Shown one piece after another: positions 16,325-17,497 of a stretch of 42,850 nucleotides of DNA. Position 1 is the stretch's first letter. Every line of letters starts with the position of its first letter. Made by a program: the position numbers and the translations under genes. The DNA comes from Promethearchaeota archaeon (GTDB taxonomy: Archaea > Asgardarchaeota > Lokiarchaeia > Sigyniarchaeales > SOKP01): contig JABXKD010000026.1 in NCBI GenBank assembly GCA_013375475.1, positions 1 to 42,850 of the forward strand. Reading direction: 5' to 3'. Below the pieces are notes generated by a model. The model did not search any database. It was not told where the DNA came from and worked only from the letters and a program-made list of their open reading frames with translations.

Positions 16325-17497
16325 CTATTTATAAGTATCAAGTCCCGCTTTACAACCCATACCTAAGAAATCAATCATGGCCCCATTATAATCATTTTCA
16401 ATTTTGTAATAGAGCCCTTCGTGATTGAAAGCAACCCCCCAGAGAAATTTACGCGAATCACTTTGGAGCGGTGTTTCGTCTACAAATTTCTTCATTAAAG
16501 GGTGAAGATGAACTGGAACTTCTTTCGGATCATCGCTTTCAATACCAAAACAGAAACGCTCAATTTTTTCTGAATCCCAGCTAAAAGTATAATTGAGATG
16601 CACCGCTTTCGTGCATCCTTCCATTGCTTCCTTTACAGCTAACTTAAATCCTAAGTCTTCTACAAGTGCTACACAATTATCATAAGTTGCCTTTGGTGGT
16701 TGTTTTAACATGAAATAGATATTCGTAGTTTTGTGCAGAAAATCAAAAGCAAATAAGCTGAAAGCAGTTAAATCGTGTTTAATTAAGTGATCTCTATATT
16801 TTTTCATACTTTCAGGAGCCGATTTCATTGAAAATATAGGTTCAATTGAACCCGGGACGATAAACACCCATATTTTTGATAATCCCGTAGTAGCATCCAC
16901 ATCGACGCCATAACCCATCAGTTGAAAAGTGTCCATAGTCTCTTGAATCATTTCATGGATCGGGTGATCATCTTTTTCAATTAATCCCTCGCTAATAGCT
17001 TTAGTATAAGGATCAGGATTATGTGGCATAAAAAATTCTACATACCTGAGTGCAACATCTCTACGCTCAACCGGTTTAGTCGTGGTTCTGATTGAAACGG
17101 GAGCTCCTATGAAAAATTTCTTGAATACATTGAAAACTTTCCGAGTCTCATTTTCATTAAAGTTAACTTCAGTGATATCGCAGAGTTTTGCGAAATCTTT
17201 AACCATCTGTTCTAAATCGTTCGTGCATTTGAAGTCTGCCTTTATCTTAGATAAATACCTATTATACTCAACATTCAAAGCTTTAAGATCTTCAATCATT
17301 GTAGGTTGAAATGCAGTTGGTGTTATTTCGAATAATGCTACAATGAGATCCATTTCACCTACCATCTTTCCTTGTCGTTCTTCACATTTAATCTCAGCTT
17401 TTTCGAAGAGTTGAGGTTTTATAACGGGTCTCACCATTTCTGGCATTCTTAAAACCACATTATCATAAAGTTCTTTTACTTCTGGTCGCCATTCCAT
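16325..17497 (-). CDS. ABBA-family soluble aromatic prenyltransferase (NphB/CloQ-like) with N-terminal DUF2621/PCP_red-like domain
   Basis: RTTTKP, DPYTKAISEGLI...HPI, GYGVDVDATTGLSKIWVF, FDFLHKTTNIYF, ERFCF, YYKIENDY follow the NphB/CloQ barrel pattern. Confidence 0.85.
   Translation of the reverse strand: MEWRPEVKELYDNVVLRMPEMVRPVIKPQLFEKAEIKCEERQGKMVGEMDLIVALFEITPTAFQPTMIEDLKALNVEYNRYLSKIKADFKCTNDLEQMVKDFAKLCDITEVNFNENETRKVFNVFKKFFIGAPVSIRTTTKPVERRDVALRYVEFFMPHNPDPYTKAISEGLIEKDDHPIHEMIQETMDTFQLMGYGVDVDATTGLSKIWVFIVPGSIEPIFSMKSAPESMKKYRDHLIKHDLTAFSLFAFDFLHKTTNIYFMLKQPPKATYDNCVALVEDLGFKLAVKEAMEGCTKAVHLNYTFSWDSEKIERFCFGIESDDPKEVPVHLHPLMKKFVDETPLQSDSRKFLWGVAFNHEGLYYKIENDYNGAMIDFLGMGCKAGLDTYK

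Follow-up and report, generated by a model that had tools for sequence, protein, structure and literature searches.

A soluble ABBA-type aromatic prenyltransferase in a domain-sharing operon of Asgard archaea, with a putative role in oxygen-independent synthesis of a prenylated aromatic lipid

The stretch of DNA analysed here (hereafter the window) comprises 42,850 nucleotides from a Promethearchaeota archaeon (contig JABXKD010000026.1 of assembly GCA_013375475.1), and the gene in question is the minus-strand open reading frame (ORF) at 16325..17497, for which an earlier inspection of the sequence (the original prediction) had proposed an NphB/CloQ-type soluble aromatic prenyltransferase. Analysis of the sequence and of structure models confirmed that this ORF encodes an intact, soluble, barrel-type aromatic prenyltransferase, for which catalysis is predicted. 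Taken together, its family and fold, its conserved diphosphate-site residues, a small helical domain shared with neighboring enzymes, synteny, and gene fusions lead us to consider it probable, at roughly 60%, that the prenyltransferase and its domain-sharing operon constitute an accessory, O2-independent cluster for the production of a prenylated aromatic lipid.

Residues 94–378 of the protein matched Pfam PF11468 (PTase_Orf2) with an E value of 9e-51 and 173.4 bits against a cut-off of 22; the match covered profile positions 2–283, i.e. 282 of the 287 positions, and an NCBIfam profile search found no model for the protein. The highest 19-residue Kyte-Doolittle mean was 1.27 and the structure model is globular, consistent with a soluble protein that lacks a membrane segment. 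The Pfam match, a ten-strand barrel (see below) and the low hydropathy thus bear out the proposal that an archaeon possesses a soluble enzyme of the ABBA, or prenyltransferase (PT)-barrel, type. The four motifs on which that proposal had been based were all located by regular-expression searches (DPYTKAISEGLIEKDDHP at residue 162, GVDVDATTGLSKIWVF at 197, DFLHKTTNIYF at 252 and YYKIENDY at 363), except that the spacing between GL and HP is five residues and not three. Neither [ND]DxxD nor DDxxD was found in the window protein by the same means, in agreement with what had been stated; an [ND]DxxD-like string occurs in three of 35 homologues, by chance or otherwise. The likeness to NphB and CloQ held with regard to family and fold, but AmbP1, AmbP3/FamD1 and EpzP are nearer relatives, as evidenced by a sequence search of the PDB that returned AmbP3/AmbP1 at E values of about 1e-33, EpzP at 2e-31, NphB at 2e-18 and CloQ at 4e-9. 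Many homologues already carry the name "aromatic prenyltransferase" at NCBI; hence the family assignment is not new.

A full-length AlphaFold2 (AF2) model built with 35 homologues had a mean predicted local distance difference test (pLDDT) of 91.4 and a predicted template-modeling (pTM) score of 0.87, and showed helices interspersed with ten strands across residues 134–368, which is the arrangement of an ABBA barrel. When the model was compared with the PDB using Foldseek, the matches were AmbP3 (5y72; E 7e-27, template-modeling score TMt 0.90), AmbP1 (TMt 0.90–0.91), EpzP (4ee6; TMt 0.88), NphB (1zb6; TMt 0.81) and CloQ (TMt about 0.8), with DMATS-type enzymes and LimF reaching E values of only 1e-5 to 1e-6. 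Structure prediction had been suggested as a check on the barrel, and the ten-strand model together with the TMt of 0.90 to AmbP3 answers it in the affirmative. We take the diphosphate site of NphB to consist of K119, N173, Y175, Y216, R228, Y282 and K284, and we presume that K121, N175, Y177, R230, Y284 and K286 in the numbering of the NphB variant 7fhf correspond to K119, N173, Y175, R228, Y282 and K284. In the alignment, these six positions of 7fhf pair with K208, N259, Y261, R314, Y363 and K365 of the window protein, all of which are invariant or near-invariant across the 35 homologues, so that six of the seven diphosphate-site residues are matched. Within the family, Mg2+ dependence characterizes the NphB type (Asp62) and independence the CloQ type; the alignment with NphB begins past the Mg2+-related Asp62 position, and that with EpzP places the invariant R146/D147 nearby without deciding between the two types.

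The first 90 residues of the protein, which fall inside the ORF and had been overlooked in the original prediction, constitute a separate, non-catalytic domain. A phmmer search with residues 1–95 against the 38 ORFs of the window localized the same domain to the N-termini of two radical S-adenosylmethionine (SAM) enzymes of the SPASM type, designated rS1 (E 5.8e-21) and rS2 (E 2.7e-20), and to the C-terminus of a U32-family protein (E 3.3e-10), the next-best ORF scoring 0.42. A hidden Markov model (HMM) made from the four window copies retrieved just these four among the 10,692 ORFs of the whole genome. Folded alone by AF2 with 37 copies as the alignment, the domain is a five-helix bundle (pLDDT 87.8), and in the full-length model the block of residues 81–90 drops to a pLDDT of 66, which fits a flexible linker between domain and barrel. 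As for its relatives, Pfam DUF2621 (PF11084) was matched by 36 of the 37 copies (best E 1.5e-8) and PCP_red (PF08369), which forms the C-terminal domain of BchB/ChlB, BchB being a protochlorophyllide reductase subunit, by seven (best E 0.0071). The four window copies match DUF2621 weakly (E 2.4e-4 to 0.04; 14–21.5 bits, cut-off 27.7). The 37 copies fall below the Pfam cut-off with a single exception, the copy with the best E of 1.5e-8, whose bit score was not returned. The nearest clusters in the protein Atlas were bacterial DUF2621/PCP_red proteins of approximately 85 amino acids (aa) with a score of 0.94, and the nuclear magnetic resonance structure 2l09 was matched with a probability of 0.95 and a TMt of 0.63; none of the Foldseek matches of the domain in the PDB reached E ≤ 0.001. 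A wide search with VIA-align yielded Z scores of 8.0 or less, mostly to AAA-lid-like helical bundles, which is within the stated background of the tool. These bacterial proteins of about 85 aa are free-standing, whereas in the window the domain forms part of enzymes that belong to three unrelated folds. Judged by its placement, the domain is a mobile module, because some relatives of the prenyltransferase carry a C-terminal and not an N-terminal copy, and it could serve as an adaptor that brings each enzyme to a common carrier, substrate or partner. A literature search returned nothing on the function of DUF2621, and the papers matched by PF08369 were unrelated.

The company of the prenyltransferase is conserved among 27 related Asgard loci. 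In 21 of these, the genes for rS2 and rS1 immediately precede that for the prenyltransferase, with a gene for a B12-binding radical SAM enzyme, B12a, in between in 18; in the remaining six, the contig edge comes within 1.4 kb upstream. A gene for an SCP2-type lipid-binding protein, a U32 gene, or both are found downstream in 26 of the 27, and three U32 paralogues belong to the cluster in 12. Gene fusions were also observed, namely a U32-domain-SCP2 protein of approximately 687 aa in 11 loci and radical-SAM/SPASM-SCP2 proteins in loci L004 and L012, and the fusion of SCP2 to U32 or SPASM enzymes points to a lipid substrate. The Thorarchaeota-labelled locus L004 additionally contains, at 17696-20352, a domain-bearing SPASM enzyme, an SCP2 protein, a FAD_binding_4 oxidoreductase and a CCG/4Fe-4S protein. 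Scanning metagenomes with an alignment of distant relatives produced two further loci. In one of them, L030 (guanine-plus-cytosine (GC) content 0.32), the prenyltransferase barrel is 40% identical to that of the window and is accompanied by three domain-bearing U32 genes, three domain-bearing SPASM genes and a gene resembling B12-binding radical SAM enzymes, 23% identical to B12a, in which Pfam finds Radical_SAM only; hence the association of prenyltransferase, U32, SPASM and shared domain persists at a distance. After the last SPASM gene, L030 continues with genes for a NUDIX hydrolase, 3-deoxy-D-arabino-heptulosonate 7-phosphate (DAHP) synthase and a further radical SAM protein (12093-14741). 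DAHP synthase catalyzes the first step of the shikimate pathway, and its presence in this one locus fits a shikimate-derived acceptor, as it also fits prephenate as an oxygen donor. The other locus, L029 (GC 0.53), encodes a barrel without the domain, and its neighbors there are genes for a P450 and for a type III polyketide synthase, the classical bacterial context of NphB-type enzymes.

Since the family has so far been bacterial and fungal, we considered whether the gene might be non-native, either inserted recently from a bacterium or part of a bacterial fragment joined by mis-assembly. The window is the whole of a contig (C188) in a 3.92-Mb genome of 288 contigs, its GC content is even (0.26–0.39 per kilobase), and it includes an L10e ribosomal protein gene at 6189-6815. 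Contigs of three other sequencing runs were mapped to window positions 12000–26000: one contig of 4194 bases from another sample covers 13629-17822, and contigs from a run of a different study bridge 15778-16336 and 16893-17693, that is, both ends of the gene. The 27 related loci come from metagenome-assembled genomes (MAGs) labelled Promethearchaeota/Promethearchaeia, Thorarchaeota, Hermodarchaeota, Hodarchaeota or "uncultured archaeon", on contigs of up to 498 kb, and their variable flanks contain Asgard-type genes such as those for actin and BAR-domain proteins. The contig is archaeal and is not chimeric at the prenyltransferase gene: a chimera at this point, which the original prediction had named as fatal to its proposal, was looked for, and the even GC, the bridged junctions and the archaeal flanks speak otherwise. 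A non-native origin would agree with the patchy occurrence in the phylum and with the same architecture in Deltaproteobacteria MAGs and in Acetivibrio clariflavus; the uniform GC, the independently bridged junctions, the recurrence of the same operon on 27 Asgard contigs and the well-supported clade described below have already largely refuted it, and we regard it as highly improbable. Of the two possibilities that had been offered, horizontal acquisition and an unrecognised archaeal clade, the data support membership in a conserved archaeal clade, as opposed to a one-off insertion or an assembly artefact, but not in an unrecognised one, given the names that its members already bear at NCBI.

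Within the phylum, PF11468 was found in 32 of 400 genomes (28 of the 134 in the family to which the window archaeon belongs; 13 of the 90 of high quality) and the shared domain in 47. All 32 prenyltransferase-positive genomes carry the domain, 29 of them in at least three copies, and the other 15 have one to three copies; some of the latter are fragmentary, and some domain-only genomes may carry trimmed clusters. These counts mean that the cluster is accessory and patchily inherited in Loki-type Asgard archaea. Beyond the phylum, an exhaustive HMMER search of 1.84 billion representatives identified only 227 clusters at E ≤ 0.001. A maximum-likelihood tree, quickly computed from the barrel domains of 123 cluster representatives and without NphB, CloQ, Fnq26 and EpzP, was poorly supported in its deep branches (43 of 120 inner branches under 80). 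All domain-bearing proteins were nevertheless in one 38-row group with a Shimodaira-Hasegawa-like approximate likelihood ratio test (SH-aLRT) value of 89, which is under the 95 mark, and the window protein belonged to a clade of 16 rows with an SH-aLRT of 98, whose members of 348–437 aa have the N-terminal domain, bar one of 285 aa with no domain match. In five representatives, including one named "Thermoplasmata archaeon", the domain is C-terminal instead. The N-terminal domain and barrel also occur together in three proteins encoded by Deltaproteobacteria MAGs, a pair of them with consecutive locus tags on a single contig of 96 kb, and in a 380-aa "aromatic prenyltransferase" of Acetivibrio clariflavus (protein P0299; domain E 1.7e-10 on residues 8–90), a cultured, harmless, cellulose-degrading anaerobic bacterium with a complete genome; a Streptomyces species is also among the named family members. 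The recurrence of this architecture in Deltaproteobacteria MAGs and A. clariflavus makes transfer between domains of life likely somewhere in the history of the family, in one direction or the other. Literature searches, which did not extend to supplements, returned nothing on an archaeal member, the cluster or DUF2621, and nothing on the A. clariflavus prenyltransferase; passages from PMC12144867 and PMC13036324 contain no mention of prenyl.

In the window, the operon consists of eight minus-strand genes in series with gaps of 2–200 bp, in the order B12b, 215-aa protein, rS2, rS1, B12a, prenyltransferase, U32 and SCP2 (Table 1). Twenty-two sequencing runs contain the operon, and no RNA run is listed among them.

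Table 1. Coordinates of the prenyltransferase, its two domains and the other genes of the operon in the window.
Feature	Position	Strand	Basis and remarks
Aromatic prenyltransferase ORF, 390 aa	16325..17497	minus	ATG start; ORF listing of the window
N-terminal helical domain of the prenyltransferase, residues 1–90	17228..17497	minus	phmmer, AF2; relative of DUF2621/PCP_red
PT-barrel (ABBA) catalytic domain, residues 94–390 and stop codon	16325..17218	minus	Pfam PF11468, AF2, Foldseek
B12-binding radical SAM enzyme B12b, 503 aa	22718..24229	minus	Pfam B12-binding and Radical_SAM
215-aa protein of no known family	21870..22517	minus	One hydrophobic N-terminal segment
Radical SAM/SPASM enzyme rS2, 458 aa	20412..21788	minus	Pfam Radical_SAM and SPASM; N-terminal domain at 21507-21779
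Radical SAM/SPASM enzyme rS1, 470 aa	18997..20409	minus	Pfam Radical_SAM and SPASM; N-terminal domain at 20131-20400
B12-binding radical SAM enzyme B12a, 471 aa	17534..18949	minus	Pfam B12-binding and Radical_SAM
Divergent U32-family iron-sulfur protein, 454 aa	14835..16199	minus	Pfam Peptidase_U32; C-terminal domain at about 14838-15089
SCP2-type lipid-binding protein, 132 aa	14359..14757	minus	Pfam SCP2, E 5.6e-4

The U32 protein scored 51.5 bits against Peptidase_U32 (cut-off 22.4) over residues 70–133 and matched PDB entry 5d88 with an E value of 5.5e-7. Its sole NCBIfam match was "prephenate-dependent tRNA uridine(34) hydroxylase TrhP", in the N-terminal part (E 9.6e-9; 34.5 bits against 534). 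Ten cysteines (C57, C153, C163, C167, C195, C199, C312, C316, C319 and C322), among which is a C312-x3-C-x2-C-x2-C motif, are kept in 21 of 21 orthologues. Two canonical U32 genes are located on other contigs of the genome (C212:3798-4475 and C236:14857-15540), with 267 and 262 bits as compared with 40.6 for the operon gene; the latter is thus an extra, very divergent paralogue. Of six SCP2 regions scanned in related loci, four pass the Pfam cut-off (23.1–26.3 bits), and the other two scored 18.9 and 17.3.

The radical SAM enzymes retain their CxxxCxxC motifs. The best NCBIfam matches of rS1 were AhbD (137 bits), NirJ1 (125) and AhbC (121), all far below the cut-offs, and those of rS2 were NirJ1 (135), AhbD (134) and AhbC (127). 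One could therefore suppose that the operon tailors a tetrapyrrole or another planar cofactor, with AhbC/AhbD/NirJ-like and BchE-like enzymes remodeling side chains, the PCP_red-like domain handling the macrocycle and the barrel adding a prenyl tail. Enzymes of haem or haem d1 side chains do account for the top four matches of rS1 and the top five of rS2 (AhbD, NirJ1, AhbC and NirJ2, and NirJ in addition for rS2; 118–137 bits), BchE is matched by B12a (92 bits) and B12b (58 bits), and the PCP_red matches of the shared domain fit such a view, as does its top VIA match, to the C-terminal portion of BchI, a Mg-chelatase subunit (Z 8.0). All of these scores are, however, far below family cut-offs of 500–650 bits, a Z of 8 for a small helical bundle is within background, and the window contains no gene for tetrapyrrole synthesis. 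Moreover, prenylation of a tetrapyrrole is not known for any ABBA enzyme, and SCP2 and U32 proteins have no known role in such pathways. We give this explanation very little credence; for a cluster producing a prenylated aromatic lipid, the same AhbD/NirJ-like matches suggest the trimming of carboxyalkyl side chains.

The enzyme B12a is a probable C-methyltransferase, judging from its matches to NCBIfam TIGR04072, a lipid-biosynthesis B12/radical SAM family (271 bits against a cut-off of 360), and to BzaD (191 bits); its C211, C215 and C218 are kept in 21 of 21 orthologues. B12b, which scored 244.5 bits against TIGR04190 (cut-off 500), is the first gene of the cluster in most full-length loci; neither B12 enzyme carries the shared helical domain. 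Beside the operon, at 9147-12854 on the plus strand, are genes for a CDP-alcohol phosphatidyltransferase, a family 2 glycosyltransferase (GT2) and a LuxE/PaaK-like adenylating enzyme; the first two occur together in eight of the 27 related loci, and all three in four of these. They may belong to the pathway, e.g. for a head group or for acid activation. These genes, the resemblance of B12a to a lipid-biosynthesis family, weak matches of rS1 and rS2 to the tetraether synthase Tes (56–60 bits) and the lipid binding of SCP2 could also be read as membrane-lipid remodeling, with isoprenoid glycerol-ether lipids, or the head groups of these, as the target of modification by the cluster and a non-classical acceptor prenylated by the barrel. 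Characterised members of the barrel family all act on aromatic rings or on aromatic hetero-atoms, though, and every known U32 reaction hydroxylates an aromatic or hetero-aromatic carbon; the genes for head groups occupy the opposite strand and are missing from many loci, and an accessory cluster would be odd for core membrane chemistry. We consider membrane-lipid remodeling improbable as compared with an aromatic acceptor.

The combination of SPASM and B12 enzymes also brings to mind ribosomally synthesized and post-translationally modified peptides (RiPPs). In such a pathway a peptide would be prenylated in the manner of LimF, the shared domain would bind the leader, the SPASM and B12 enzymes would cross-link and methylate, and the U32 protein would remove the leader. 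Cyanobactin-type ABBA enzymes such as LimF do prenylate ribosomal peptides, and LimF appeared in the fold search at an E value of 1e-5; rS1 and rS2 also match peptide maturases (MftC 110 bits, PqqE 87, WgkB 87–92, and PapB), B12a matches RiPP C-methyltransferase families, U32 was first named as a peptidase family, as its Pfam name records, and a domain N-terminal to SPASM enzymes is in the usual position for leader recognition. What is missing is a candidate precursor: among ATG-started ORFs of at least 15 aa in six operon gaps, there are three small ones on the minus strand, and none of them has a conserved equivalent among 29 related loci (best tblastn E 0.044). The 215-aa protein, with no Pfam match, no meaningful PDB match and a top 19-residue Kyte-Doolittle value of 2.33 at residue 13, is poorly conserved, as evidenced by partial matches of 30–50% identity at the same position in 15 of the 27 loci. 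Further, the barrel is nearer to small-molecule enzymes (TM 0.88–0.91) than to LimF (TM 0.43–0.53), SCP2, whether free or fused to U32 and SPASM enzymes, argues for a lipid, and the shared domain bears no likeness to known leader-recognition folds in Foldseek, VIA-align and Pfam scans. A RiPP pathway is accordingly an unlikely alternative. The intact barrel, the free or fused SCP2, the U32 protein and the lack of a precursor-peptide candidate instead argue for a hydrophobic small-molecule substrate that is passed between enzymes.

For the prenylated aromatic lipid that we favor, we infer the order of steps, the chemistry of each enzyme and the nature of acceptor, donor and product as follows. 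The barrel would use a prenyl diphosphate to prenylate an electron-rich aromatic acceptor, relying not on a DDxxD motif but on a Lys/Asn/Arg/Tyr diphosphate cage of the kind found in NphB, CloQ, AmbP and EpzP. Prenylation would come first and render the acceptor lipophilic, and the greasy intermediate would then be held by SCP2. The ring would be hydroxylated without O2 by the U32 protein or proteins in the manner of UbiU/UbiV, the B12 radical SAM enzymes would perform C-methylation, and the AhbD/NirJ-like SPASM enzymes would trim or couple side chains. CloR acts after CloQ, and by analogy rS1/rS2 could be an anaerobic counterpart of CloR. By analogy also, the best reading of the product is a prenylated, hydroxylated and methylated aromatic lipid. 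A more far-reaching version, which we put forward as tentative and hold at well under even odds, is that the operon is a complete O2-independent route to a new Asgard isoprenoid aromatic lipid, such as a quinone/quinol-like electron carrier or a signaling lipid, in which the soluble barrel would replace UbiA, the AhbD/NirJ-like enzymes would shorten a shikimate-derived side chain, the U32 enzymes would hydroxylate, the B12 enzymes would methylate and the DUF2621-like domain, as an adaptor not recognised before, would assemble enzymes of three folds around an SCP2-bound intermediate. We know of no quinone from these archaea; elsewhere in the genome there are five UbiA-family matches (four over the cut-off) and one UbiD-family gene, which do not decide the quinone question.

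Several observations weigh against an aromatic-lipid pathway or against parts of it. The position of NphB Y216 pairs with N301, which is no tyrosine, although Y302 is adjacent. The U32 protein is very divergent, with only profile positions 3–66 of 233 matching Pfam, and the window has a single U32 gene while UbiU and UbiV act as a pair; the SCP2 protein, at 20.6 bits, is just below the Pfam cut-off of 21.3. RiPP maturation, too, typically involves SPASM and B12 radical SAM enzymes, and the best family matches of rS1 and rS2, like the PCP_red likeness of the domain, point to tetrapyrrole chemistry. None of the data indicates a binding partner for the shared domain. No gene for an aromatic precursor or for a prenyl diphosphate synthase is present in the cluster of the window; hence acceptor and donor are guesses. 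Finally, the cluster is patchy even within the genus (nine of 41 other genomes), so it is not a core cofactor pathway.

There are ten radical SAM genes in the 42.8 kb of the window (6950-8086, 17534-24229, 27149-28180, 31022-32476 and 34837-39466), of which six have a B12-binding domain (starting at 17534, 22718, 31022, 34837, 36513 and 37997) and two are SPASM-type; the four B12 radical SAM genes outside the operon lie among glycosyltransferase, sulfotransferase and deacetylase genes. Three genes that stand in a row at 39737-42786 on the plus strand encode the large subunit (E 1.3e-223) and the small, B12-binding subunit of methylmalonyl-CoA mutase and the GTPase MeaB; they represent another cobalamin-dependent function on the contig. 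Five small proteins ending in a zinc ribbon are spread over the window (8114-8875, 12951-13535, 13607-14167, 24378-24884 and 32631-33131); some of them flank the operon, and matches to them also adjoin the cluster in related loci.

To our knowledge, all soluble PT-barrel prenyltransferases characterised to date are bacterial or fungal, and most belong to O2-using secondary metabolism. The present work adds a conserved archaeal form that is joined to an adaptor domain and placed among strictly oxygen-independent enzymes. If a lipid-soluble aromatic product is correct, the closest prokaryotic relatives of eukaryotes would be the source of a new small molecule, and DUF2621-type domains would gain their first function. 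The enzyme could also be a biocatalyst with a new acceptor range, and the homologue in A. clariflavus makes the question testable without cultivation of an Asgard archaeon.

Among characterised enzymes, the nearest are AmbP1 and AmbP3/FamD1, the cyanobacterial indole prenyltransferases of hapalindole/ambiguine synthesis (5yk9, 5y4g and 5ynt), and EpzP, the phenazine prenyltransferase of Streptomyces (4ee6). They have the family and the barrel in common with the window enzyme at 25–30% identity and a TMt of 0.88–0.91, and all are soluble, devoid of DDxxD and equipped with a basic/tyrosine diphosphate site. The AmbP and EpzP proteins, however, are of approximately 300 aa without an extra domain and belong to secondary-metabolite clusters of the aerobic type, whereas the window enzyme has the N-terminal helical domain and radical SAM, U32 and SCP2 neighbors. 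NphB (Orf2; 1zb6) and CloQ (2xlq) share fold and family at 16–21% identity in the structural alignment and are more distant than AmbP and EpzP; the type III polyketide synthase and the P450 seen in the NphB-type context of L029 are both missing from the cluster of the window.

For the pathway as a whole, the point of reference is UbiT/UbiU/UbiV, an O2-independent ubiquinone hydroxylation system of Proteobacteria (PMC6747719, PMC10470549). The Ubi system uses the membrane protein UbiA, whereas the window operon has a soluble barrel, with methylation presumably carried out by B12 radical SAM enzymes, and the shared adaptor domain has no counterpart there. Prenylated phenols are hydroxylated in the Ubi system by U32 iron-sulfur proteins together with an SCP2 protein, with no need for O2. 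No orthology to UbiU, UbiV or UbiT was found, in that TrhP is matched only in part and NCBIfam returned nothing for the two extra U32 paralogues of L004; in place of a UbiU/UbiV pair, the cluster has one U32 gene, the two others being on other contigs. Because the U32 protein matches 64 Pfam positions and falls far below the TrhP cut-off, the relation to the Ubi system is one of analogy and not of membership. As such it is the nearest precedent: a U32 iron-sulfur protein with conserved cysteines and an SCP2 partner stand, in an anaerobe, beside what is predicted to be an aromatic prenylation step.

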